Assembly (NCBI RefSeq): GCF_051903065.1
Contig: NZ_CP178438.1
Origin: Escherichia coli
GTDB lineage: Bacteria; Pseudomonadota; Gammaproteobacteria; Enterobacterales; Enterobacteriaceae
Direction: 5' to 3' (one strand)
Length of the DNA stretch: 64,000 nt
In this document: positions 49,487 to 64,000 of the stretch, piece after piece
How the letters are laid out: every line of letters starts with the position of its first letter
Position numbering within the stretch: the first letter of the stretch is position 1
Made by a program: the position numbers and the translations under genes
The notes under the pieces: generated by a model
The model's database searches: none
What the model was told of the DNA's origin: nothing
Seen by the model: only the letters and a program-made list of their open reading frames with translations

Positions 49487-51196
49487 ATGAAATTTATTGG
49501 GAAGCTGCTTCTCTACATTCTCATCGCTCTGTTAGTGGTGATCGCTGGCCTCTATTTTCTTCTGCAAACCCGCTGGGGAGCAGAACATATCAGCGCATGG
49601 GTTTCCGAGAATAGCGACTATCATCTGGCCTTCGGGGCGATGGATCACCGTTTTTCCGCGCCATCTCATATCGTGCTGGAGAATGTCACGTTTGGTCGTG
49701 ATGGCCAGCCCGCGACCCTGGTGGCCAAAAGTGTCGACATTGCGCTAAGTAGTCGGCAACTGACCGAACCACGCCATGTCGATACCATCCTGCTGGAAAA
49801 CGGGACGCTGAATCTCACCGACCAGACCGCGCCGCTACCGTTCAAAGCCGATCGTCTGCAACTGCGTGATATGGCGTTTAATAGCCCGAATAGCGAATGG
49901 AAACTGAGCGCGCAGCGGGTAAATGGCGGCGTGGTTCCGTGGTCACCAGAAGCCGGTAAAGTGCTGGGTACGAAGGCGCAGATTCAGTTTAGTGCCGGAT
50001 CGCTTTCGCTCAATGATGTTCCTGCCACCAATGTACTGATTGAAGGCAGTATTGATAACGATCGCGTTACGCTGACTAACCTGGGTGCCGACATCGCGCG
50101 CGGGACATTAACCGGAAACGCGCAGCGTAACGCCGACGGCAGCTGGCAAGTGGAAAACCTGCGCATGGCGGATATCCGTCTACAAAGCGAAAAATCGCTA
50201 ACCGACTTCTTTGCGCCATTACGCTCTGTCCCGTCGTTGCAGATTGGTCGCCTGGAAGTGATCGATGCTCGTTTGCAAGGTCCGGACTGGGCGGTGACCG
50301 ACCTCGATCTCAGCTTGCGCAACATGACCTTCAGTAAAGATGACTGGCAGACACAAGAAGGCAAACTGTCGATGAACGCTAGCGAGTTCATTTATGGTTC
50401 GCTGCATTTATTTGACCCGATTATAAACGCGGAATTTTCCCCGCAGGGCGTAGCGCTGCGCCAGTTCACCAGCCGCTGGGAAGGGGGTATGGTCAGAACG
50501 TCAGGGAACTGGCTGCGTGACGGGAAAACGTTGATCCTTGATGATGCGGCAATTGCCGGGCTGGAATATACCTTGCCGAAAAACTGGCAACAGTTGTGGA
50601 TGGAAACGACACCCGGTTGGTTAAACAGCCTGCAACTGAAGAGATTTAGCGCCAGCCGCAATCTGATCATTGATATCGACCCTGACTTCCCGTGGCAGCT
50701 CACCACGCTCGATGGTTACGGTGCCAACCTGACGCTGGTTACCGATCATAAATGGGGCGTCTGGAGTGGCTCGGCGAATCTGAATGCCGCCGCCGCGACA
50801 TTCAATCGTGTTGATGTTCGTCGCCCGTCGCTGGCGCTGACCGCCAACAGCAGCACGGTGAATATCAGCGAACTGAGTGCATTTACTGAAAAAGGCATTC
50901 TGGAAGCCACTGCCAGTGTTTCACAAACGCCACAACGTCAGACCCATATCAGCCTGAATGGACGCGGTGTGCCGGTGAATATTTTGCAACAATGGGGATG
51001 GCCTGAATTACCGTTGACTGGCGACGGCAATATTCAGCTTACCGCCAGTGGAGATATTCAGGCCAATGCCCCGCTGAAACCTACGGTTAGCGGGCAATTG
51101 CATGCCGTGAACGCCGCAAAGCAGCAAGTGACTCAAACCATGAATGCGGGCGTCGTTTCCAGCGGTGAAGTTACATCGACGGAGCCGGTGCAGTAA
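49487..51196 (+). CDS. yicH: AsmA-family protein
   Basis: Start MKFIGKLLLYILIALLVVIAGLYFLLQTRW (N-terminal anchor); 569 aa. Confidence 0.88.
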   Translation: MKFIGKLLLYILIALLVVIAGLYFLLQTRWGAEHISAWVSENSDYHLAFGAMDHRFSAPSHIVLENVTFGRDGQPATLVAKSVDIALSSRQLTEPRHVDTILLENGTLNLTDQTAPLPFKADRLQLRDMAFNSPNSEWKLSAQRVNGGVVPWSPEAGKVLGTKAQIQFSAGSLSLNDVPATNVLIEGSIDNDRVTLTNLGADIARGTLTGNAQRNADGSWQVENLRMADIRLQSEKSLTDFFAPLRSVPSLQIGRLEVIDARLQGPDWAVTDLDLSLRNMTFSKDDWQTQEGKLSMNASEFIYGSLHLFDPIINAEFSPQGVALRQFTSRWEGGMVRTSGNWLRDGKTLILDDAAIAGLEYTLPKNWQQLWMETTPGWLNSLQLKRFSASRNLIIDIDPDFPWQLTTLDGYGANLTLVTDHKWGVWSGSANLNAAAATFNRVDVRRPSLALTANSSTVNISELSAFTEKGILEATASVSQTPQRQTHISLNGRGVPVNILQQWGWPELPLTGDGNIQLTASGDIQANAPLKPTVSGQLHAVNAAKQQVTQTMNAGVVSSGEVTSTEPVQ

Positions 51197-51212
51197 ACAT
51201 CAATCTCGTCGG

Positions 51213-51237
51213 GTACGACTCAGACGTACCCGGCATT
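51213..51237. terminator. Hairpin between convergent yicH and yicI
   Basis: cgggtacg-actcagac-gtacccg stem. Confidence 0.55.
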
Positions 51238-51248
51238 CCATCAATAGA

Positions 51249-53567
51249 TTACAACGTAATTGTCAGCGCATTCCCTTGAGGCTTCACCACCAGCCCCTGC
51301 TCACTTTCAGCCTGCGAACCGCCTTGCAGACCATTTACTTTCACAACATTGCGCAAGCACAGTGTCCAGTTCCTCGCCTCGCCCGCACCAATCACAGTAA
51401 TCGTGTTACCAGTACGTGTTGCTTTTAGAGTAAAGATCACCGAACCGTCAGCAGCGGGCACTTCACAGACGGCTTCATGCCCGTCTTGCTGATTAAAGAG
51501 GTGGAATGCCGTGCCTTCGTGCCACGCGTAATCGGGACGTTGATCGTTGTTGCCCAGCGCCAGTAGAGTGTTATCACGCACATAAACGGGCAGACTCAGG
51601 AAGCTGTGCTGCTGTTTATGCCAGCGACTACCGTCGAGTTCATCGTTGTGCCACAGGTGTGTCCAGCGACCTTCCGGCAGGTAGAACTGCACATCGCCCG
51701 CTTCAGTGAACACCGGCGCAACCATCACGTTGTCGCCTAACATGTATTGACGGTCAAGGTAATCACAAGCCGGATCGTCCGGGAACTCCATCATCATGGC
51801 CCGCATCATCGGCGTACCCCGCGTGTTTGCACGCGCAGCTTCACGATACAGATACGGCATCATGCGGCATTTCAGTTGCGTGAAGAAGCGCACCACATCA
51901 CAGGACTCATCATCGTAGGCCCACGGCACACGATAAGATTTGCTGCCATGTAAACGGCTATGGCTGGAGAGCAAACCAAACGCGCACCAGCGTTTGTAAA
52001 CGTGTGCCGGAGCGGTATTTTCAAAGCCGCCGATATCGTGGCTCCAGAAGCCAAAACCTGAAAGGCCAATAGACAAACCACCGCGCAGGCTTTCCGCCAT
52101 TGATTCGTAGTTAGCGTAACAGTCACCACCCCAGTGTACCGGGAATTTCTGCGCACCAACGGAGGCCGAGCGGGCAAACAAGACGGCTTCTTCCTCACCA
52201 ACGGTGTCCTTGAGCACGTTCCACACCAGTTCGTTGTAGATGTACGCATAATGGTTATGCATTTTCTGCGGATCGGAACCGTCAAACCACTGAACATCGG
52301 TTGGGATACGTTCGCCAAAGTCGGTCTTAAAGCAATCAACGCCCATCGCGACCAGACCTTTCAGTTTGTCGGCGTACCATGTGCAGGCATCCGGATTGGT
52401 AAAGTCATAAATCGCCAGACCTGGCTGCCATTTATCCCACTGCCACAGCGAACCGTCCGGGCGTTTGAGTAAATAGCCTTTCTCTTGTAACTCTTTAAAG
52501 ACGGGGGATTTTTGCCCGATATAGGGGTTAATCCAGACGCAGATTTTCAGCCCTTTCGCTTTCAGGCGGCGGATCATCCCTTCCGGGTCCGGGAAAGTCA
52601 GCGGGTCCCACTCAAAATCGCACCACTGGAAGGCTTTCATCCAGAAACAGTCAAAGTGGAAAACATGCAGTGGCAGATTGCGTTCCGCCATACCATCGAT
52701 AAAGCTGTTTACTGTCGCCTCGTCGTAGTTGGTGGTAAATGAAGTGGTTAGCCACAGACCGAAGGACCACGCGGGCGGCAGCGCCGGACGACCAGTAAAG
52801 CGGGTATAACGATCAAGTACCGCTTTCGGCGTCGGACCGTCGATAACAAAGTATTCGAGATATTCACTCTCAACGCTGAACTGCACTTTGGAGACTTTCT
52901 CCGATCCCACTTCAAAAGAGACGCATTGGGGATGATTGACCAGTACCCCATAACCACGGTTAGTCATGTAGAACGGGATATTTTTATACGCCTGTTCAGT
53001 ACTTGTGCCGCCGTCCCGGTTCCAGGTCTCTACCGTTTGACCATTGCGCACCAGGGCAGTGAAGCGCTCTCCCAGACCATAAACTGTTTCGCCAACGCCA
53101 AGATCCAGCCGCTCAAACATATAATTTCGTTGATTATTCGTGTCCTGCACGTAGCCATTATTTTTCACCTGACTACCGGTAATACGTTCGCCGTTGCGCA
53201 GAAAATCCAGTGACCAGAACTCACCTTTGCTGACACGCGCACTTAAGTTGCCACTTTTAAACTCAGCATAACGCTCTGTGTTTTCGATTGTGACCTTCAC
53301 GTCCTGCAAAATATTGAGTGGGTAATGAGGACCGTTATTCAGCGCCCCCTGAAAATGCTCAATCCGTACACCGACAATACCTTCCTGTGGGGAGAAAAAG
53401 CGCAGCGTAAATAAAGGCGTATCAAGCTGCCAGGTACGTTCACGCACATCACGGGGGGCAGCATAGACCACCATTTCATTACCCTGCTGTTCAACCTCGA
53501 ACACCTGAAGCGGGTGAATCAAATTGAGGCCAGGTTGAATCAACCAGTTTCCATCGCTAATTTTCAT
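51249..53567 (-). CDS. yicI: Alpha-xylosidase (GH31)
   Basis: 772-aa [44 protein letters not shown]...; GH31 catalytic region. Confidence 0.92.
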
Positions 53568-53576
53568 TGCCGTTCC

Positions 53577-54959
53577 TTAGTTCTGCACTTCTTGAGAGGT
53601 GAATTGTTGCTGGCAACGGCGTTTGCCCTGGGCCAGCTGTTCCATAACGGTTTTCAGATTGTGCGTCGTGAGTGAGTAGTAGCGTTTAGCGATAATCGCG
53701 CTCAGCAAATAACAGATCGCCGGAACAATCGTGAATAGCGCAATAATGATGCTAATCGTGGCGCTGTTCTGCGCTTTTTCTGCCGCATCATATCCGCCAT
53801 AAGCCAGCATCCAGCCGATAAGAGCGCCGCCGAAGGCCAACCCCAGTTTGAGCACAAACAGCGTGCCAGCAAAACTGATCCCGGTCAGGCGTTTACCATT
53901 GCACCACTCGCCGTAGTCGACGGTATCGGACATCATTACCCACTGGATAGGTGTCACCAGTTGATGCAACACACCAATCACGAAGATGAAGACAAACATA
54001 GTGATGCTGGCCTGCATGGGAACAAAGAACATCGCGAGGCTAATCACTGCCAGCAGGGCGTTCGTCCACCAGAAAATAGTGACTTTACATTTCCAGTCGG
54101 TCAGCGGTTTTGCCAGAGCGGAACCAATCAGGTTACCCACGCAATAAGTGGTGAGAAAAGCGACAAACACTTCCGGCGTACCCAAAATCCATGTGACGTA
54201 ATACATCATCGCTCCACCGCGTACGCACACCGCCAGGATATTGAAAATGGTTAGTAAACCGACAATCCGCCACTGGTCGTTTTGCCAGATATCACGTAAA
54301 TCTTCCCGCATAGACGTCGTTGTAGGTGGTGCTTCAACGCGTTCTTTAGTGGTGAAGAAACAGAATGCCAGCATCATGAATGCCACCACGGAAAGGACCG
54401 CGATACCACCCTGGAAACCGAGTGGTTTATTATCACCACCAATTAAATTAACCAGTGGCATCATCAGAACCGTAGAAAGCATGCCTCCCGCGGTCGCCAG
54501 CACAAAACGCCAGGATTGCAGCGAGATACGCTGAGTCGGGTCATTGGTGATTACACCACCCAATGCGCAGTAAGGGATATTGACGACGGTATAAAGTAAG
54601 GTAAGTAGGGTGTAAGTAATTGCTGCATAAATCATTTTTCCGTTCATACTGAGATCTGGCGTGCTATAGGCCAGTACACAGACGATCCCAAATGGCAGTG
54701 CGCCAAACAGTACCCACGGACGAAATTTACCCCAGCGAGAGCGCGTTCGATCGGCCAACAACCCCATGCAAGGATCGGAAATCGCATCCAGTGCACGAGC
54801 GACCAAAAACATGGTTCCGACAAATCCGGCAGGAATGCCAAAAATATCGGTATAAAAGAACATCATATATAACATTACGTTATCGAAAATAATGTGGCTG
54901 GCGGCGTCTCCCATGCCATAACCAATTTTCTCTTTAACGGACAACACTTCACTCTTCAT
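53577..54959 (-). CDS. yicJ: GPH-family sugar:cation symporter
   Basis: 460-aa polytopic ORF MKSEVLSVKEKIGYGMGDAASHIIFDNVMLYMMFFYTDIFGIPAGFVG...; cotranscribed with yicI. Confidence 0.9.
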   Translation of the reverse strand: MKSEVLSVKEKIGYGMGDAASHIIFDNVMLYMMFFYTDIFGIPAGFVGTMFLVARALDAISDPCMGLLADRTRSRWGKFRPWVLFGALPFGIVCVLAYSTPDLSMNGKMIYAAITYTLLTLLYTVVNIPYCALGGVITNDPTQRISLQSWRFVLATAGGMLSTVLMMPLVNLIGGDNKPLGFQGGIAVLSVVAFMMLAFCFFTTKERVEAPPTTTSMREDLRDIWQNDQWRIVGLLTIFNILAVCVRGGAMMYYVTWILGTPEVFVAFLTTYCVGNLIGSALAKPLTDWKCKVTIFWWTNALLAVISLAMFFVPMQASITMFVFIFVIGVLHQLVTPIQWVMMSDTVDYGEWCNGKRLTGISFAGTLFVLKLGLAFGGALIGWMLAYGGYDAAEKAQNSATISIIIALFTIVPAICYLLSAIIAKRYYSLTTHNLKTVMEQLAQGKRRCQQQFTSQEVQN

Positions 54960-55251
54960 CTACTTTTCCTTGATGCTATAGGGGTGCTGAGACCGATAAC
55001 GCATTTTGTAAACCATCCCTGTGAGAGCGAATATTCCGATATCTGGTTATTAATTTATGATTCTTGTTTTATGTGATCGTGGTAGCGTTAATTCCGCTCA
55101 TATGTCATTGTAAAATATGGATTTTATATGAACTATAATGCTTTCGTGATAATACGCTGCGTGTATTAGGCGGAAAAAACTGATCTGGGGGATGTAGAAA
55201 CTCAAGGAAGTAGCTATAATGCGCCCCGCCTCCATGTAGCAATCGAGGCGC

Positions 55252-55346
55252 GGAAGATCGTCGTCTCCGGTGAGGCGGCTGGACTTCAAATCCAGTTGGG
55301 GCCGCCAGCGGTCCCGGGCAGGTTCGACTCCTGTGATCTTCCGCCA
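55252..55346 (+). tRNA. selC: tRNA-Sec (selenocysteine, anticodon UCA)
   Basis: 95-nt sequence ggaagatcgtcgtctccggtgaggcggctggacttcaaatccagttggggccgccagcggtcccgggcaggttcgactcctgtgatcttccgcca, with long variable arm, UCA anticodon and encoded CCA. Confidence 0.95.
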
Positions 55347-55645
55347 GTTTACCTCTTCTGAACTCTCCCAATGTCAATAAATCTCTTCTAATCCCTTGTA
55401 TATCAGTATTTATTTGTATCCAGAGGTCAACCTACTTCACCCCGTATCAAGTTTCTTTTGGGGGTACTTTAGGGGGTGTTATTTCCTATTGAAATACCAG
55501 CACCCCCATAATAGGAAAAATGTGATATATAACAACGGCTTTTAACAACATCTTTGTTATACAAGGGGTGTATTGGGGGTATCAGGTTAGTTACTGGCAG
55601 AAATCCCCCTCAGGAACATGAATTCATCAAAAGCCGGAGGATGTC

Positions 55646-56437
55646 ATGGCATTAACCGATATCAAAGTGAAAACCGCAAAACCCAAAGACAAACCCTATA
55701 AGCTTGCTGATGGCGGCGGTATGTATCTACTGATTAACACTAATGGTTCTAAATACTGGCGCATGAAGTACCGCTTTGCTGGTAAAGAAAAGATGCTTTC
55801 TATTGGCGTATACCCCGATGTAACGCTAGCCGATGCTCGCGAGAAACGCAGTGAAGCCAGGAAACTCCTCGCTGCTGGAGGCGATCCAGGGGAGGCAAAA
55901 AAGGAAGAAAAAATCGCGCAGCAAATGAGTCTGCAAAATACGTTCGAGGCTATTGCTCGCGAATGGCACCAGTCAAAAGCCGATCGGTGGTCATTACGCT
56001 ATCGTGATGAAATCATTGATACCTTTGAAAAAGACATTTTTCCCTACATTGGCAAGCGCCCTATTGCCGAAATCAAACCAATGGAGTTACTGGAAGCACT
56101 GCGTAAAATGGAAAAACGTGGAGCTCTGGAGAAAATGCGCAAGGTCCGCCAGCGCTGTGGTGAGGTGTTCCGCTATGCAATTGTTACTGGCCGGGCAGAC
56201 TATAACCCAGCCCCCGATCTTGCCAGTGCTTTAGCTACACCGAAAAAAGTACATTTTCCCTTTCTTACTGCTAATGAACTTCCCCACTTCCTCAACGATC
56301 TGGCGGGTTATACCGGAAGTATAATCACTAAGACAGCTACTCAGATCATTATGTTAACCGGCGTACGAACACAAGAACTGCGTTTTGCACGCTGGGAAGA
56401 TATCGATTTTGAGACAAAATTGGGCTTTGTTGAATAA
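55646..56437 (+). pseudogene. Truncated P4-type tyrosine integrase (N-terminal arm-binding and core-binding part only)
   Basis: 263-aa ORF MALTDIKVKTAKPKDKPYKLADGGGMYLLINTNGSKYWRMKYRFAGKEKMLSIGVYPDV... (typical P4-family integrase N-terminus), 300 bp downstream of selC. Native sequence ends at 56422; the frame runs 4 codons into the IS left inverted repeat and stops. The catalytic R..HxxR..Y domain is absent. Confidence 0.85.
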
Positions 56438-57479
56438 ATCGAACTTTTGCTGAGTTGAAGGATCAGATCACGTATCTTCCCGACAACGCAGACCGTTCCG
56501 TGGCAAAGCAAAAGTTCAAAATCACCAACTGGCCCACCTACAATAAAGCCCTCATCAACCGTGGCTCCATAACTTTCTGGCTGGATGATGAAGCTATTCA
56601 GGCCTGGTATGAGTCAGCAACACCTTCTTCACGAGGCAGACCTCAGCGCTATTCTGACCTTGCCATCACGACTGTGCTGGTCATTAAACGCGTATTCAGG
56701 CTGACCCTGCGCGCTGCGCAGGGCTTTATTGATTCCATTTTTTCTCTGATGAACGTTCCGCTACGCTGCCCGGATTACAGCTGTGTCAGCAGGCGGGCAA
56801 AGTCGGTTAATGTCAGTTTCAAAACGCCCACCCGGGGTGAAATCGCACACCTGGTAATTGATTCCACCGGGCTGAAGGTCTTCGGTGAAGGCGAGTGGAA
56901 AGTCAAAAAGCATGGCCAGGAACGCCGCCGTATCTGGCGTAAGCTGCATCTCGCCGTTGACAGTAAAACACATGAAATCATCTGCGCTGACCTGTCGCTG
57001 AACAACGTTACGGACTCAGAGGCCTTCCCCGGGTTAATCCGGCAAACCCACCGGAAAATCAGGTCAGCCGCCGCCGATGGCGCTTACGATACCCGGCTAT
57101 GTCACGATGAACTGCGGCGTAAGAAAATCAGCGCGCTTATCCCTCCCCGAAAAGGTGCGGGTTACTGGCCCGGTGAATATGCAGACCGTAACCGTGCAGT
57201 GGCTAATCAGCGAATGACCGGGAGTAATGCGCGGTGGAAATGGACAACAGATTACAACCGTCGCTCGATAGCGGAAACGGCGATGTACCGGGTAAAACAG
57301 CTGTTCGGGGGTTCACTGACACTGCGTGACTACGATGGTCAGGTTGCAGAGGCTATGGCCCTGGTACGAGCGCTGAACAAAATGACGAAAGCAGGTATGC
57401 CTGAAAGCGTGCGTATTGCCTGAAAACACAACCCGCTACGGGGGAGACTTACCCGAAATCTGATTTATTCAACAAAGCC
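56423..57479 (+). mobile_element. IS903-group (IS5-family) insertion sequence, 1057 bp, intact 18-bp terminal inverted repeats, no target-site duplication
   Basis: Left end ggctttgttgaataaatc (56423-56440) and right end gatttattcaacaaagcc (57462-57479) are exact inverted repeats. The left-end sequence matches the IS903 end of Tn903 as I recall it. Flanking 9-mers acaaaattg and ggatttcat are not identical. Confidence 0.88.
56455..57423 (+). CDS. IS903-family DDE transposase
   Basis: 322-aa ORF (TTG start in the track) ...YLPDNADRSVAKQKFKITNWPTYNKALINRGSITFWLDD...; it fills the IS between the inverted repeats. The true start may be downstream. Confidence 0.85.
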   Translation: MKDQITYLPDNADRSVAKQKFKITNWPTYNKALINRGSITFWLDDEAIQAWYESATPSSRGRPQRYSDLAITTVLVIKRVFRLTLRAAQGFIDSIFSLMNVPLRCPDYSCVSRRAKSVNVSFKTPTRGEIAHLVIDSTGLKVFGEGEWKVKKHGQERRRIWRKLHLAVDSKTHEIICADLSLNNVTDSEAFPGLIRQTHRKIRSAAADGAYDTRLCHDELRRKKISALIPPRKGAGYWPGEYADRNRAVANQRMTGSNARWKWTTDYNRRSIAETAMYRVKQLFGGSLTLRDYDGQVAEAMALVRALNKMTKAGMPESVRIA

Positions 57480-57770
57480 GGATTTCATCTGAACAACGGC
57501 CCACAGGCCGATCGACTTGCCGACCTGGAAAGAATGCTGCATCTGTTCAGCGGCAAACCGATCCCCGACAACCGGGAAAACATCACTATTCATCTGAATG
57601 AGCACATCCGGTCTGTTCAGGGTAAAGAGTGCTATGAAGATGAAATGTTCAGCATCAGATACTTTAAGAAGGGCTCCGCGCACATCACGTTCAGGAAACC
57701 AGAACTGGTTGATCGGCTAAATGATATTATAGCCAGACACTATCCGGAAATGTTACCTTCACAATAGAGT
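57480..57770 (+). pseudogene. Orphan 3' gene fragment (C-terminal 96 codons of an unidentified protein) abutting the IS right end
   Basis: The frame is open from the first base after the IS right repeat (GFHLNNGPQADRLADLERMLHLFSGKPIPDNRENITIHLNEHIRSVQGKECYEDEMFSIRYFKKGSAHITFRKPELVDRLNDIIARHYPEMLPSQ) with no start or ribosome-binding context. Family not recognised. Confidence 0.5.
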
Positions 57771-57899
57771 ACTAAGAATTGATTCAATTATGTATTTTAG
57801 CTTCATTCCTTCATGCAAAATCATTTGGGGGTTCTTATGGGGGTTACTCATTTATCCAACACATACAAATTATTTAAGATCAATGCATTAATACTTATA

Positions 57900-57921
57900 T
57901 TCGACTCCTGTGATCTCCGCC
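57900..57921 (+). repeat. Imperfect direct repeat of the selC 3' end (attR-like island boundary)
   Basis: tcgactcctgtgatctccgcca matches selC 55324-55346 (tcgactcctgtgatcttccgcca) apart from a single T deletion; the following ~50 nt also resemble the sequence just downstream of selC. Confidence 0.8.
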
Positions 57922-58559
57922 AAAATGCCTCTCCTGACGTTCTCCAACCCCTTGTAATACTGTCAATCCAGATATTTTCTACTGCTCAATATTCAATCGG
58001 CTTCAGGAATACCTGGTCTAAGGTTTTGTGATGGACGATGAGCGGCTGAAGAATCCGCCTGTCGGTTCTTCTGTCCTCGAACGCATCCGCGATATTCACG
58101 CCAGTATGCGCCGTGTTTATTTGCAGGTGATTTGCCCCCCTGCTGACTCTCAGCCAACTGTATCGCCATTAAGGTGAAGATGTTGTTTTACTCGCCCCAG
58201 AACACCCTTTTTTATACGACTATTCTATTTCTTTAACCGCTGGCGAAAAAAAACTGACTATAAACTTCACCAATAATCAGACTGCCATCAAGATTAATTT
58301 GTTCATTTAATATATCAAATCAACTTGTTTTATTTTTACTATCAAAAATAGCTCATTGCCTTACTATAATTAATATATAAATTCGGTAATTAATTCTTAA
58401 CATGCTTTTACTAATAATCTCAATTGCTGGCCCTATAATATTGCGCTAGCATTGCTTTCTGGTTGTATCAGCGATACTCAAAAATTCTTAATACAATACT
58501 CATTCGACTGGTACTTATTTGTAACTCAGTTATATTTTTTCGCCCGGTGATTCAGAAGA

Positions 58560-59744
58560 ATGCAAAAAACGGCTACCACTCCATCAAAAATACTTGATCT
58601 CACTGCCGCGGCATTTTTACTTGTCGCCTTTCTGACGGGTATTGCGGGCGCTCTTCAGACTCCTACCCTAAGTATATTCCTCGCAGATGAACTGAAAGCC
58701 CGTCCTATAATGGTAGGTTTTTTCTTCACCGGTAGCGCTATTATGGGAATTCTGGTCAGTCAATTTCTGGCAAGGCACTCCGATAAACAAGGCGACCGTA
58801 AATTACTGATTCTGCTATGTTGCTTATTTGGAGTGCTGGCCTGCACGCTTTTTGCGTGGAATCGCAACTACTTCATTCTCCTCTCAACGGGCGTACTTCT
58901 GAGTAGTTTTGCTTCCACCGCAAACCCGCAAATGTTCGCCCTCGCCCGTGAACACGCCGACAGAACAGGCCGTGAGACGGTCATGTTCAGTACATTTTTA
59001 CGTGCTCAGATCTCGCTTGCCTGGGTTATCGGGCCACCGCTCGCTTATGAACTGGCAATGGGATTTAGTTTTAAAGTGATGTATCTCACCGCTGCCATCG
59101 CATTTGTTGTTTGCGGACTGATAGTCTGGTTGTTTTTGCCATCAATACAAAGAAATATTCCTGTCGTTACCCAACCCGTAGAAATTTTACCCTCCACCCA
59201 CAGGAAGCGGGATACGCGGCTACTTTTTGTGGTCTGTTCAATGATGTGGGCGGCGAATAATCTCTACATGATAAATATGCCGCTATTTATTATTGATGAA
59301 CTGCATCTAACCGATAAACTGGCTGGAGAAATGATTGGTATCGCTGCCGGTCTGGAAATTCCGATGATGTTAATCGCAGGCTATTACATGAAACGTATTG
59401 GCAAGCGACTATTAATGCTCATTGCTATCGTGAGTGGAATGTGTTTTTACGCCAGCGTACTCATGGCGACGACTCCGGCGGTTGAGCTGGAATTGCAAAT
59501 TCTTAATGCCATCTTCCTTGGTATTCTCTGTGGTATCGGCATGCTTTATTTTCAGGACTTGATGCCTGAAAAAATAGGCTCTGCGACAACGTTATATGCA
59601 AATACTTCACGCGTCGGCTGGATTATCGCCGGCTCTGTTGACGGAATTATGGTTGAAATCTGGAGCTACCATGCGTTGTTCTGGCTGGCGATAGGGATGT
59701 TGGGTATTGCGATGATTTGCCTGCTGTTTATTAAAGATATTTAG
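58560..59744 (+). CDS. setC: Sugar efflux transporter (MFS, SET family)
   Basis: 394-aa ORF MQKTATTPSKILDLTAAAFLLVAFLTGIAGALQTPTLSIFLADELKARP...; clear similarity to SetA/SetB as I recall them. Confidence 0.88.
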   Translation: MQKTATTPSKILDLTAAAFLLVAFLTGIAGALQTPTLSIFLADELKARPIMVGFFFTGSAIMGILVSQFLARHSDKQGDRKLLILLCCLFGVLACTLFAWNRNYFILLSTGVLLSSFASTANPQMFALAREHADRTGRETVMFSTFLRAQISLAWVIGPPLAYELAMGFSFKVMYLTAAIAFVVCGLIVWLFLPSIQRNIPVVTQPVEILPSTHRKRDTRLLFVVCSMMWAANNLYMINMPLFIIDELHLTDKLAGEMIGIAAGLEIPMMLIAGYYMKRIGKRLLMLIAIVSGMCFYASVLMATTPAVELELQILNAIFLGILCGIGMLYFQDLMPEKIGSATTLYANTSRVGWIIAGSVDGIMVEIWSYHALFWLAIGMLGIAMICLLFIKDI

Positions 59745-59854
59745 CTCACCAGTCTGGGCTAAGAAAAATCGGCGTGGCGCAAACAGAGCCATCCTCGCCA
59801 TTTTTGCTATCATGCCTGCATACATAAACGACAAAACAGTATGCAGAGGGAAAA

Positions 59855-60778
59855 ATGGGTTCCACCAGAAAGGGGATGCTGAACGTTCTGATTGCCGCCG
59901 TGTTGTGGGGAAGTTCAGGGGTCTGCGCGCAATACATCATGGAGCAAAGCCAGATGTCGTCGCAGTTTTTGACTATGACGCGTTTGATATTCGCCGGTTT
60001 GATTCTACTGACGCTGTCATTTGTTCATGGCGATAAAATCTTTTCTATTATTAACAATCATAAAGATGCCATTAGCCTGCTGATTTTTTCCGTGGTTGGC
60101 GCGCTAACTGTACAGCTCACTTTTTTGCTAACCATCGAAAAATCGAACGCAGCCACGGCAACGGTGCTGCAATTCCTCTCACCGACGATTATCGTCGCCT
60201 GGTTCTCACTGGTGCGTAAATCGCGCCCGGGCATTCTGGTTTTCTGCGCTATTTTGACATCGCTGGTCGGGACTTTTTTATTGGTGACACACGGTAATCC
60301 GACGTCATTATCGATCTCTCCTGCCGCGTTGTTCTGGGGCATTGCCTCGGCATTTGCTGCTGCATTCTATACCACCTATCCCTCAACGCTAATTGCCCGC
60401 TATGGCACGTTACCAGTCGTCGGCTGGAGTATGCTGATTGGCGGTCTGATTCTGTTGCCTTTTTATGCCAGACAAGGAACAAACTTTGTCGTTAACGGCA
60501 GTTTGATTCTGGCGTTTTTTTATTTGGTGGTCATTGGTACGTCCCTGACATTTAGTCTGTACCTGAAAGGAGCACAATTAATTGGCGGTCCAAAAGCCAG
60601 CATTTTGAGCTGTGCAGAACCATTAAGTAGCGCGCTACTCTCTTTGCTGTTGCTGGGGATCACGTTCACATTACCGGACTGGCTGGGAACGCTGCTGATT
60701 CTGTCATCGGTGATTTTGATTTCAATGGATTCCCGTCGCCGCGCCAGAAAAATAAATCGTCCGGCGCGGCATAAGTGA
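59855..60778 (+). CDS. yicL: EamA/DMT-family inner membrane transporter
   Basis: 307-aa polytopic [36 protein letters not shown]...; two EamA-like halves. Confidence 0.85.
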
Positions 60779-60781
60779 GAA

Positions 60782-61600
60782 TTACCAGCCAGGCACCGCG
60801 CCACCGTTAAAAATGGTTTCTGCCGCTTTAGCGACTTCGGGTGATTGATAAGATTGCAGAAATTCCTTCACGTTTTCTGCATTCTTATTATCTTCCCGTG
60901 CCACCAAAATATTCACATACGGCGAATTCTTATCTTCAATAAATACGCTGTCGTGCACCGGAGAAAGCCCGGTCTGCTGAATGTAAGTGGTGCTGATAAT
61001 CGCTACATCAACTTTGGGATCATCCAGTACGCGCGGGAGCTGCGCCCCCTCGAGTTCCATAATCTGCAAATGACGAGGATTATCGGTTATATCCAGCGCG
61101 GTAGGTAATAACCCTTTTCCCTCTTTCAGAGTAATTAGCTTCTCTTTTTGCAACAGTAAAAGTGCGCGACCAAGGTTGGTCGGGTCGTTGGGGATCGCCA
61201 CTGTCGCGCCTTCTTTTATTTGCGCCACGGTTTTGATTTTTTTGGAATAACCCGCCATAGGGAAGACAAACGTATTTCCCACCGCTACCAGTTTATAACC
61301 ATGCGCCTGATTATCTTGTTCAAGAAAGGGTCGATGCTGGAAGACATTCGCATCAAGTTCGCCATGATTTGTCGCATCGTTCGGTAGCAACGAACCGCTA
61401 AATCCTACCAGTTCAACATCGAGGCCATATTTCTCTTTTGCCACCTTTTTAGCGACTTCCGCGACATCTTGTTCTGCGCCATTTATAACGCCAACTTTAA
61501 TGTGTTTTGCATCGCTGCTACTCTGGTCGCAACCTGCCAGCAGAATTCCGGCCAGCAATAATGCGGCCCCTGTCCGTAGATGATGTGTTGTCAGTTTCAT
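60782..61600 (-). CDS. nlpA: Lipoprotein 28 (MetQ-like methionine-binding lipoprotein)
   Basis: 272-aa ORF MKLTTHHLRTGAALLLAGILLAGCDQSS (lipobox LAGC); NlpA/MetQ fold. Confidence 0.9.
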   Translation of the reverse strand: MKLTTHHLRTGAALLLAGILLAGCDQSSSDAKHIKVGVINGAEQDVAEVAKKVAKEKYGLDVELVGFSGSLLPNDATNHGELDANVFQHRPFLEQDNQAHGYKLVAVGNTFVFPMAGYSKKIKTVAQIKEGATVAIPNDPTNLGRALLLLQKEKLITLKEGKGLLPTALDITDNPRHLQIMELEGAQLPRVLDDPKVDVAIISTTYIQQTGLSPVHDSVFIEDKNSPYVNILVAREDNKNAENVKEFLQSYQSPEVAKAAETIFNGGAVPGW

Positions 61601-61821
61601 TTTTTTATCCTTTTATTAATGATTACCTGACTATAGCGGTAAGGTCGCTGCGGTTTAAAAAACGAAACGCTATCGATAAGAATAAAAAGGAATAAAAGTG
61701 GAATATAAAGTCTGGCACTTCTTACTGACCACGCAAGCGCGTTTCGTACAGCATGATGAGAGCGATGAAAGCAAACTACACTTATGCTTCATTCGATACA
61801 CATTTGTAAAAGGTTGAATCC

Positions 61822-62115
61822 ATGAAACCAACGACACTACTGCTTATTTTCACTTTTTTCGCTATGCCAGGCATCGTATACGCCGAGTCGCCTTTTAGCT
61901 CACTGCAGTCCGCAAAAGAGAAAACCACGGTATTACAAGATTTACGTAAAATTTGCACGCCACAGGCGTCATTATCAGATGAAGCGTGGGAAAAGTTAAT
62001 GTTGTCAGATGAAAACAATAAACAACATATACGCGAGGCCATCGTGGCGATGGAACGTAATAATCAGAGCAATTATTGGGAAGCGTTGGGTAAGGTAGAA
62101 TGCCCGGATATGTAA
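61822..62115 (+). CDS. yicS: Small secreted protein of unknown function
   Basis: 97-aa ORF MKPTTLLLIFTFFAMPGIVYAESPF... with signal peptide; conserved position between nlpA and nepI. Confidence 0.75.
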   Translation: MKPTTLLLIFTFFAMPGIVYAESPFSSLQSAKEKTTVLQDLRKICTPQASLSDEAWEKLMLSDENNKQHIREAIVAMERNNQSNYWEALGKVECPDM

Positions 62116-62155
62116 GAACAGCAACAACTACTGACCAACGCTTCTTTACCTGATA

Positions 62156-63346
62156 TCAGGATTTCTTCATTTTCACCTTTGCAGTAACCAACAATGCAGT
62201 CAGCAACATCAATGTGCCGGACAACATCAACGGCGAAGTCAGACCAATATTATCCAGCGCATAACCGCCGATTGCCGCGCCACAGGTATTAGCAAGCTGA
62301 ATAACCGCCACCTGAATAGACCCGGCTTTTTCTGCCTGATCGGCCAGCGAGCGGGTGATCCACGTTGACCAGCCGACGGGAACCAATGCAAAAGTTAGCC
62401 CCCAGATAATCGCCACGCCGGTAGCAACGATTTTATCGCTTCCCCACAACGTCAGTACCAACGCACTCACAGCCAGTATTAACGGCGCGCCTGCTAAGGC
62501 CAGTTTTACCGAACGTTTAAGAATGAACGACGAAAGCGACGTACCAATAAAGCTGGCGATACCAAAACTCAACAGCACCAGCGTTAAGCCATCCACGCCG
62601 AATCCCGCCAGGTTCATATACACCGGGCGAATATACGTGAAGAAAGCAAACTGCCCGGCGAAAGACATGAAGATGGCGATCATCCCTGCCATCACACCCG
62701 GACGTTGTAATAAGCGGAAAGTATTTTGTTTCTGATGCGAGGGTTCGCCTGGCAGTGAAGGCAATGATTTGATAATCCAGAAAATACACAGCACGCCCAT
62801 CACCGCCGCCGCATTAAAGACATTGCGCCAACCGATAAGCTCGCCTAAAAAACTTCCCAACGGCGCGGCAATCACCAGCGCAATAGAAACCGCGCCGAAG
62901 ATCACCGACAGCGCCTTCGGCACCGTACGCGGCGGCACCAGACGCATGGTCAGCGACGCCGACATCGCCCAGAACCCGCCCAGCGCCAGCCCCAGACAGG
63001 CACGACCGATTAAAAGCAAACTGAATGAGTTAGCAAAGGAAACCAGCAAGCAGGAGAGCGTCAGCAAAACGGCAAACAAAATAACAACGTAGCGGCGGTC
63101 AGTAGCCTGAATTGTCTGGGTAATAAACAAACTGGCAAACATTGCCACAAAGGCGGTCACGGTCACCGATTGCCCGGCAACCCCTTCCGAAATGCCTAAA
63201 TCCTGGGCCATTGGCGTCAACAAACTGACGGGCAAAAACTCAACGATAATCAGACAGGCGACACAAAACGCCACCGAGAAAACGGCTGACCAGTTCGGTC
63301 GGGTGATGGCATCCGCGCCGCGGTTTTCGGCAATAAATTCACTCAT
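62156..63346 (-). CDS. nepI: Purine ribonucleoside efflux pump (MFS)
   Basis: Likely start [59 protein letters not shown] (396 aa); the ORF-track extension to 63511 is rejected. Confidence 0.88.
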
Positions 63347-63556
63347 GGTGTTACCCGTGGCATGTTTCAGGGGAAAAGCCGACCACTTTAACATTGAAAT
63401 GTGTGACGCATTTAACGTTTTTGCAACTTTTACGGTGTTGCTTGAGCTGGAGTTAAGATCGAAACGGAACAGGGCAAAGATTACCGGATGCGGCGTGAAC
63501 GTCTTATCCACCCGACAGGTCAGGCGCGGTCTGTAGGCTGATAAGACGAAACGGTT

Positions 63557-63997
63557 TCAATGCAACCAGTGAACGCCCTCGGCAGGCTGAAAGAACGCGT
63601 TATAGCGCATCTGAAAAGCATTAATATCCTGCATTTCAGGTTCGGTTTCGCGCAGAAAACCTAGCGCCAGCCTGACCTGAGCGTCGGTAATCGGCGCGGC
63701 GAGGCGAGCTTTTTGTAAAATCCGATGCCATTGCAGCAGGTTCTGTTCGCTACCATCGACAATGACAATTTGCCAGATGAGCAACACCTGCGCGGCGTTT
63801 TGCAGGTGCGACTCAACCGGACGATGCAAATAACGTAAAAATTCGTCACCAGCTGACTTTCCCATTTGATCGACCATCGACTCCACGGGTACGACATCGA
63901 TGTTCAGCCGATCGCTGAGACGGCGAATCGCTTTTCTGGCCCCGGATGTCAGCACCCGAAAACCAACCACAAACACTACCGCCAGCGTGGCGAGCAT
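63557..63997 (-). CDS. yicN: Uncharacterised protein (YicN-like), start at or near the window edge
   Basis: 146-aa ORF MLATLAVVFVVGFRVLTSGARKAIRRLSDRL...; N-terminal hydrophobic segment; position after nepI. Confidence 0.6.
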   Translation of the reverse strand: MLATLAVVFVVGFRVLTSGARKAIRRLSDRLNIDVVPVESMVDQMGKSAGDEFLRYLHRPVESHLQNAAQVLLIWQIVIVDGSEQNLLQWHRILQKARLAAPITDAQVRLALGFLRETEPEMQDINAFQMRYNAFFQPAEGVHWLH

Positions 63998-64000
63998 TAT

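Follow-up and report, generated by a model that had tools for sequence, protein, structure and literature searches.

A 2.6-kb segment beside the tRNA gene selC in this Escherichia coli genome is very probably the remnant of a known 21- to 31-kb P4-type island, the interior of which has been swapped for a single IS903B. The islet is a decayed copy of an island that was already known: publications already cover its family, the 16-bp repeat, and the GGGGGT repeats of the arms (PMC6174562, PMC3032704, PMC7545054). Coordinates below refer to the window, the 64,000-nucleotide stretch of DNA that was analyzed. A reading made from the sequence alone had described a tRNA-targeting integrative element stripped of most of its cargo, and the boundary repeat, the empty sites in other strains, and the matching intact islands bear out this view. 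That reading had left two options open, and the ends of the islet, which match the ends of intact islands in strains DL21 and BE2-5, identify the remnant of a formerly larger island as the correct one. Every part of the islet was found, its position differing from the one first given by a few bases at most.

Anatomy of the islet

The integration target is the intact tRNA-Sec gene selC (55252..55346, + strand; called by ARAGORN), which aligns with its K-12 counterpart without a difference and whose 3' end forms attL. The islet begins directly 3' of this gene, as had been proposed, its first base being the one after 55346. The attL core comprises the last 24 nt of selC, TTCGACTCCTGTGATCTTCCGCCA (55323..55346, + strand; direct repeat D4), and contains TTCGACTCCTGTGATC, the published 16-bp repeat of selC islands (PMC6174562). 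At the far end, repeat search, K-12 alignment, and island comparison all located attR, a displaced copy of the selC 3' end that reads TTCGACTCCTGTGATCT-CCGCCA with one T missing (57900..57922, + strand). Seventeen nucleotides are repeated exactly (55323-55339 and 57900-57916), and the entire copy matches 23 of 24 nt. The repeat and its missing T had both been recognized from the sequence, with an end at 57921 that has to be moved one base further, to 57922. The tRNA 3' end is therefore repeated directly at both bounds, and the boundary is the K-12 empty-site junction. The same repeat closes the intact islands of DL21, BE2-5, A27, and uropathogenic E. coli (UPEC) 536, which disposes of the objection that it might be unrelated to island boundaries. 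Because the attR variant with the missing T also closes the intact 30.6-kb island of BE2-5, the loss of this base is older than the deletion described below; attR of DL21 lacks 3 bases, compared to 1 here.

Similarity had also been claimed for about 50 nt after each repeat copy, a claim that survives for the first 25 to 30 nt but not for the longer stretch. Over the first 25 nt, 15 of 25 positions match in register, a level that random 25-mers from the window reach at a frequency of 0.00035. Over 60 to 100 nt, local alignments were no better than those of shuffled sequences, which reached the same score in 105 to 214 of 1,000 cases with strict penalties and in 120 of 2,000 with permissive penalties. 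Strain comparison showed that island left arms and unoccupied sites have in common a conserved module, the ~30 nt 3' of selC, and the shared ~25 to 30 nt suggest either extended att homology or such a selC-adjacent module, conserved in strain MS1170 and in island left arms. We rejected the idea that the K-12 spacer preserves, as a fossil, the left arm of an earlier element from this family, as the similarity stops after 25 to 30 nt and the alignments are nonsignificant. The selC-setC spacer itself (57923..58559, + strand), outside the islet and as in K-12 according to PGAP annotation and K-12 alignment, extends to the start of setC at 58560. It carries a fragment at ~58001-58162 that has only a PGAP label, RhuM-family pseudogene, and for which NCBIfam returned no family; strain MS1170 has an intact rhuM gene 53 nt past selC.

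Between the two cores, the outermost parts are island arms with arm-type repeats. The left, integrase-proximal arm (299 bp, 55347..55645, + strand) opens with the conserved post-selC module seen in the strain comparison (its first ~32 nt, 55347-55378, + strand) and carries the tandem repeat pair TTTGGGGGTACTTTAGGGGGT at 55457-55477, an inverted copy at 55502-55507, and an additional copy at 55575-55580. The right, distal arm (132 bp, 57768..57899, + strand) carries the tandem pair TTTGGGGGTTCTTATGGGGGT at 57824-57844 (repeat D1). The 64-kb window contains GGGGGT 13 times, 6 of them within the two arms. The left-arm motifs are kept in the left arms of strains 536 and B7A amid varying neighboring bases, the O157 left arm lacks ~100 nt of the motif-bearing stretch, and the right-arm pair is invariant in DL21, 536, and A27. 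By sequence, these repeats on both sides have the layout of the P4 attP: the left pair starts 110 nt from the core (112 in P4) and the right pair ends 55 nt before it (53 in P4). They are probably where the integrase would bind. The right-arm 21-mer has also been published for GIselC17584/1, an island reported to carry the core repeat along with the two 21-nt arm repeats, repeats that were first described for EPI-I (PMC6174562).

Beside attL lies the gene for a P4-family tyrosine integrase, reduced to the N-terminal 259 of 394 codons where the insertion sequence cuts it (55646..56422, + strand). The sequence-only reading had placed an N-terminal integrase fragment at just this position. Comparison with an intact ortholog, the 394-amino-acid integrase WP_001218910.1, showed the fragment to be identical to its residues 1 to 259, PGAP describes it as "missing C-terminus," and its open frame extends 4 codons into the insertion sequence. 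The label "P4-type" is justified by the intact ortholog, which aligns with phage P4 Int along its full length at 45% identity (E = 2e-115) and shares its domain order (Arm-DNA-bind_3, Phage_int_M, and Phage_integrase in Pfam). The fragment retains two domains, the arm-binding and the central one, plus the residues around the first conserved Arg (GVRTQEL, residues 239 to 245). It has lost the remaining catalytic domain, including the conserved GHGFRHT (residues 329 to 335) and RGTYNH (residues 363 to 368), which are presumed to contain the catalytic His-x-x-Arg and Tyr. An autonomous P4-type island has an intact integrase; because the fragment here lacks most of the catalytic domain, the remnant, judged from its coding capacity, cannot excise alone.

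The insertion sequence is a complete, 1,057-bp IS903B of the IS5 family (56423..57479, + strand), recovered by inverted-repeat and profile searches and agreeing with the earlier assignment to the IS903 family over the same interval; other copies, 98 to 99.6% identical, are annotated as IS903B. Both features of the IS903 group, a length of ~1,057 bp with 18-bp inverted repeats and a single IS5-family transposase, are present. The terminal inverted repeats (56423-56441 and 57461-57479) agree at 18 of 19 positions; the transposase gene (56500-57423, GTG start) is intact and encodes 307 amino acids that score 357.6 bits against the NCBIfam model NF033579 for IS5 family transposases (cutoff, 140). 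No 9-bp target-site duplication surrounds the element, the flanks being ACAAAATTG and GGATTTCAT. This would be expected if the element joins two formerly distant sequences. Missing target duplications have been ascribed to adjacent deletions or to recombination between insertion sequences, and adjacent deletions are reported to be common for IS903 (PMC11708052).

On the far side of IS903B stands the tail of the gene that ends the parent island, a DUF4942 gene reduced to 95 of 281 codons at the C-terminal end plus the stop codon (57480..57767, + strand; Pfam and ortholog comparison). It corresponds to residues 187 to 281 of the 281-amino-acid protein WP_000065752.1. An orphan gene tail had been noted at 57480-57770; the tail and its start hold, and its end, stop included, is at 57767. 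The DUF4942 assignment comes from Pfam, and NCBIfam gave no family for either the tail or the full-length protein. Apart from gene fragments and arms, IS903B is the sole content of the islet, in agreement with the earlier remark that no intact cargo survives.

Distribution and parent island

A survey of 5,426 complete E. coli genomes found an empty selC junction in 2,493, including K-12, in which selC is joined straight to the sequence from 57923 on. The segment is thus absent from conspecific genomes that have an empty attB, as is usual for a P4-type island. The left arm occurs in 1,043 of these genomes and the right end in 1,140. Just two, those of the Ecuadorian strains 23CRST027 and 23CRST031, have the whole islet, at selC in both and nowhere else. 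The junction between integrase and IS903B is restricted to two genomes, and that between IS903B and DUF4942 occurs in the two carriers and at one unrelated locus. As the carriers come from one country and, judging by their names, one series, they are effectively a single observation; their islets differ by a 1-base indel inside the selC copy of the insertion sequence. The G+C content of the islet's own segments is 41 to 45%, compared to 51% and 48% in the flanking core.

The genome comparison that had been suggested, a search for strains with an empty junction and strains with a full island, yielded both, the latter represented by DL21 and BE2-5. Window positions 55200-56422 are 99.9% identical to DL21 and 100% identical to BE2-5 over these 1,223 bp, and the right 1.1 kb, from 57480 onward, is 99.6% and 99.7% identical, respectively. 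With the same integrase in intact form, the island measures 20.9 kb in DL21 and 30.6 kb in BE2-5, and the matching segments are 19,373 bp and 29,080 bp apart, respectively. According to the annotation of the parent strains, the cargo lost comprises a TPR protein, a LacI-family regulator, an MFS transporter, a GH31 hydrolase, an SSB, an autotransporter, and insertion sequence debris, along with, in the DL21 version, a CbtA-family toxin gene accompanied by DUF5983 and DUF957 genes. Neither the islet nor the annotation of the parent island includes any P4 replication or capsid-related gene. Strain 2779 initially gave the best match with an intact integrase and was rejected as parent, as it carries a different, IS1-truncated island version without the DUF4942 end. 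A CP4-type element at selC of REL606, Selc*B, is absent from K-12 (PMC3032704), and DL21, to judge from its name, may be a member of the E. coli B/BL21 lineage.

Origin of the remnant

The anatomy, the empty site elsewhere, the near-identical ends, and the lack of a target duplication are direct observations, and they are best explained by a large island that was gutted in place. A P4-type (CP4-like) island would have inserted into the selC 3' end by site-specific recombination, and duplication of the tRNA end would have created attL (55323-55346) and attR (57900-57922). In the lineage of 23CRST027 and 23CRST031, an IS903B-associated deletion would then have taken the whole stretch separating integrase codon 259 from DUF4942 codon 187, amounting to 19.4 kb against DL21 or 29.1 kb against BE2-5, and a single insertion sequence would have been left joining nonadjacent sequences. 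Probably, either a single insertion was followed by an IS903 adjacent deletion, or two IS903B copies recombined homologously. Because intermediates with IS903B in the integrase gene or DUF4942 and an otherwise intact island number zero among the 5,426 complete genomes, we infer which event came first and which exact parent version, 20.9 kb, 30.6 kb, or some other, was involved.

Other accounts of the same 2.6 kb fare poorly. That it is an ancestral, conserved part of the E. coli genome and not an insertion, the possibility that would have undone the earlier interpretation, has practically no probability: we found no point in its support, 2 of 5,426 complete genomes contain the 2.6 kb, the K-12 site is empty, and the segments differ from the flanking core in G+C content. 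An assembly artifact, in which an island collapsed across an insertion sequence, gains some plausibility from the ~20 places matching IS903B in each of 23CRST027 and 23CRST031. It is nonetheless very improbable, since both junctions are common to two separately deposited complete genomes, which the 1-base indel within the insertion sequence separates and which are therefore not copies of one assembly; moreover, a collapse requires a second copy in the same orientation inside the island, and the real structure would then still be an island disrupted by an insertion sequence. Islands with these ends do differ in cargo by strain, from ~8 kb to 77 kb (PMC7545054), as they might if the 2.6 kb were a primary minimal element, an empty scaffold that never held cargo here and was filled differently in other strains. 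This, too, we consider highly improbable, given that both genes adjoining IS903B are cut midframe at its ends, that the element lacks a target duplication, that both ends are 99.6 to 100% identical to those of intact islands, and that the arrangement is confined to two genomes.

A further possibility, unlikely in our estimation, is compatible with deletion from a larger island and concerns what the remnant became: a nonautonomous mini-island, able to excise and reintegrate when another island in the same cell supplies a related P4-type integrase and an excisionase in trans. In its favor, selC is intact, both att cores and both arm-repeat pairs are kept and are conserved across diverged islands, the repeat geometry fits a P4 attachment site, and E. 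coli genomes each hold, at 1 to 6 places, islands whose right ends (DUF4942 genes) are related. Against it, the 64-kb window holds no cognate integrase or excisionase elsewhere, selC is the sole location of the islet in both carriers, and attR is short of one base of the tRNA copy. That the remnant is a functional mini-island, excised, circularized, and reintegrated by a related CP4-type integrase in trans, is more doubtful still. If true, it would mean that integrative islands have hitchhiking deletion derivatives, akin to the miniature inverted-repeat elements of transposons, and that this one carries an active IS903B as a passenger.

On the preferred account, deletion of the interior of a larger island, the selC islet is an ordinary, strain-specific scar without surviving cargo, and it raises no new biological question. 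It is a clean case of an expanding insertion sequence wiping out a genomic island while sparing both attachment sites. A selC locus can accordingly score as "occupied" by integrase PCR or attL-junction typing yet hold no cargo, which is relevant to typing schemes based on the occupancy of selC, pheU, and pheV in pathogenic E. coli; otherwise, the islet is of little importance.

Relation to known elements

Satellite phage P4 shares with the remnant's parent an integrase (45% identical) with the same three-domain order, a core at a tRNA 3' end, and GGGGG-containing 12-bp repeats in tandem pairs in both arms. It differs in being a replicating satellite phage and in its core, TTTGAGTCCGGCCTTCGGCACCA, which derives from the 3' end of another tRNA, presumably tRNA-Leu. 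The insertion sequence in the islet resembles IS903 and IS903B in its 1,057 bp, its terminal inverted repeats (GGCTTTGTTGAATAAATC), and its one 307-amino-acid transposase, but is without the 9-bp target-site duplication expected of the family (PMC11708052).

Among genomic islands, PAI I536 of UPEC 536, GIselC17584/1, EPI-I, SHI-2, and the tia island use the same site and core repeat and have a homologous integrase and conserved arm repeats (PMC6174562; PMC7545054); the left arm and right end of the 536 island are 87.5% and 89% identical to those described here. In contrast to the remnant, which holds only an insertion sequence, these islands span 21 to 77 kb, with virulence or fitness cargo and an intact integrase. 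The closest relative is Selc*B of E. coli B REL606, intact in DL21 and BE2-5, which has the same site, integrase, left 1.2 kb, DUF4942 gene, right arm, and attR. What sets the islet apart from Selc*B is that 19.4 to 29.1 kb of interior, including 135 integrase codons, is here replaced by one IS903B.

An insertion at selC found in two genomes

The 2.6-kb segment directly 3' of tRNA-Sec is an insertion. In K-12, selC joins directly the sequence that in the window starts at 57923, and a 120-nt probe for this empty junction was covered by a single match in 2493 of 5426 complete E. coli genomes. A sequence-only reading had described a decayed integrative islet at the selC hotspot, with coordinates that proved correct within one to three bases; we confirmed that observation, and its interpretation as a remnant is supported by the empty K-12 site and the matching ends of intact islands.

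The tRNA gene itself (55252-55346, plus strand), the sole one found by ARAGORN in 50000-64000, is followed by a non-coding left arm of 299 bp (55347-55645). An open frame begins at 55646 and through codon 259 encodes exactly residues 1-259 of the 394-residue tyrosine integrase WP_001218910.1, which many other E. coli carry intact. This frame meets GGCTTTGTTGAATAAATCG at 56423; an inverted copy with one mismatch ends at 57479, and these two element ends are the only matches to GGCTTTGTTGAATAAATCG in the 64-kb window. The 1057 bp between the inverted ends (56423-57479) are IS903B, as copies in other genomes with 98-99.6% identity are annotated, and carry an intact transposase gene of 307 codons (GTG at 56500 to 57423; 357.6 bits against the NCBIfam IS5-family model). 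The last 95 codons plus stop of a 281-codon DUF4942 gene follow (57480-57767), then a 132-bp spacer and attR, TTCGACTCCTGTGATCTCCGCCA (57900-57922), which equals the last 24 nt of selC without one T; the first 17 nt of this copy are an exact repeat. The islet's own segments have a GC content of 41-45%, and the core on either side 51% and 48%.

The ends of the islet are widespread: the 299-bp left arm occurs in 1043 genomes, chromosomal in all and nearly always single copy, and the DUF4942 tail with the right arm in 1140 genomes at >=80% coverage. The entire 3.4-kb arrangement was found in two genomes only, 23CRST027 (from human faeces, Ecuador, according to its record) and 23CRST031, as was the junction of integrase and IS903B. 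Over 14.8 kb compared, the window differs from 23CRST027 solely at 57027-57030 inside IS903B, where CCCC stands against CCC and the one-base difference frameshifts the 23CRST027 transposase.

The parent island and its loss

Intact islands align with both ends of the islet. In strain DL21, which from its name we take to be a laboratory strain of E. coli B/BL21 type, segments matching window 55200-56422 (99.9%) and 57480-58600 (99.6%) are separated by 19,373 bp, in an island of 20,893 bp from core repeat to core repeat. BE2-5 matches the left part at 100% and the right part at 99.7% identity, and the two parts lie 29,080 bp apart within an island of 30.6 kb. The BE2-5 attR lacks the same T as that of the window, so the missing base predates the deletion. 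What disappeared from the parent genes is the C-terminal third of the integrase and the N-terminal two-thirds of the DUF4942 protein, and the annotations of DL21 and BE2-5 place between them a TPR protein, a LacI-family regulator with an MFS transporter and a GH31 glycosidase, an SSB, a 1165-residue autotransporter, and abundant IS debris, along with, in the DL21 version, a CbtA-family toxin gene with DUF5983 and DUF957 genes. Strain 2779 (L003, 20447-29951) holds a second decayed version of the same island, with an intact integrase and about 8 kb of sugar-utilization cargo; the IS1 that comes next has eliminated the right end of the island along with most of setC.

IS903 duplicates 9 bp of its target. 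The flanks of the window copy, ACAAAATTG and GGATTTCAT, differ and show no 9-bp duplication; therefore, the element joins sequences that were formerly not adjacent. Absent duplications have been ascribed to adjacent deletions, which have been described as common for IS903, or to recombination between two IS copies (PMC11708052), and the interior of the island would have been lost by one of these routes. Each carrier genome (NZ_AP045789.1 and NZ_AP045800.1) has 20-22 places matching IS903B-containing probes, compared with a median of 1-3 per E. coli genome with any match, which indicates an expansion of IS903B in the carrier lineage and makes either route plausible; only one copy lies inside the 64-kb window. 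None of 5426 genomes combined either IS junction (with the integrase or with DUF4942) with an otherwise intact island. A hint as to order comes from the tRNA-Ser locus of EC596 (L017, 4094-5434), where another IS903-group copy (95% identity) borders on a DUF4942 paralogue, 1 nt away from the breakpoint of the window, and on its other side on a GGDEF gene of the core. The arrangement has the look of a parallel island deletion that arose independently; it raises the possibility of an IS903 insertion hot spot in DUF4942 genes and favors a first IS insertion there.

Attachment repeats and the selC-setC spacer

The sequence-only reading also saw similarity over about 50 nt after each repeat copy. 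The near part stands, as 15 of the first 25 nt after CCA agree in register, a level that 25-mers drawn at random from the window reach with a frequency of 0.00035; when 60-100 nt are aligned, the score falls inside the range of shuffles, and a long fossil arm in the spacer is not supported. In MS1170 (L016, 5148-6237), 53 nt separate selC from an intact rhuM gene of 345 aa, no setC is annotated between rhuM and yicL, and the first 32 nt after selC, AAATGCCTCTCCTGAACTCTCCCGACGTCAAC, are closer to island left arms than the K-12 spacer is. The roughly 30 nt past the tRNA thus behave either as an extended att homology or as a module conserved next to selC. The K-12-type spacer (57923-58559) carries a RhuM-family pseudogene fragment at about 58001-58162 (PGAP annotation). 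With an intact rhuM in MS1170 against this fragment, the "empty" site is itself variable, and the K-12-type spacer may be the residue of an older selC-linked segment.

Among strains, attR copies of the selC end vary only within CTTCC: the A27 copy is perfect (24 nt), those of the window and BE2-5 lack 1 base, that of DL21 lacks 3, and that of 536 lacks 4. The copies may have decayed once integrated, or each island's attachment site may have brought its own variant. O157:H7 FRIK2069 (L011, about 1890-1960) has an attR-like copy with one T absent, then left-arm-like sequence CCTCTTCTGAACTCTCCCGACGTCAAC, the junction expected of two elements in tandem at selC.

Comparison with P4 and related selC islands

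The integrase fragment still has the first conserved Arg with its surroundings (GVRTQEL, 239-245) and lacks conserved GHGFRHT (329-335) and RGTYNH (363-368). We take these two stretches to hold the catalytic His-x-x-Arg and Tyr, and since they are absent, the fragment is dead. Both attachment sites are complete, so the islet could conceivably still be moved in trans, the only reading of these sequences with any novelty.

In the intact integrase, an Arm-DNA-bind_3 domain is followed by the central and then the catalytic domain, and the full-length protein shares 45% identity with phage P4 Int (E = 2e-115). In the P4 record, tandem 12-bp "attP arm sequence repeats" flank the core (CATTGGGGGCAT AATTGGGGGCAT and CAGTGGGGGCAC AAAAGGGGGCAT), at a distance of 112 nt on the int side and of 53 nt on the opposite side. 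Here, the left-arm repeat TTTGGGGGTACTTTAGGGGGT starts 110 nt past the attL core and the right-arm repeat TTTGGGGGTTCTTATGGGGGT ends 55 nt ahead of the attR core; the two arms (431 bp) hold 6 of the window's 13 GGGGGT sites. The diverged islands of 536 and A27 show no change in the right-arm pair, 536 and B7A conserve the left-arm sites, and in the left arm of O157 about 100 nt are gone between two such sites. By analogy with P4, the integrase N-terminal domain would bind the arm repeats and the other two domains the core, and strand exchange would occur inside the tRNA 3' end by the standard P4 mechanism. The two arm repeats seen here, both 21-mers, and the 16-bp core repeat have already been reported for GIselC17584/1, where they are traced to the original description of the avian island EPI-I (PMC6174562). 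In the E. coli W genome paper, REL606 is listed with a CP4-type element, Selc*B, at selC, and K-12 with none (PMC3032704). With its dead integrase and no cargo, confined to one IS903B-rich lineage, the islet is a deletion derivative of this described family, to which Selc*B, PAI I536, SHI-2, the tia island, and GIselC17584/1 belong (PMC3032704, PMC6174562, PMC7545054).
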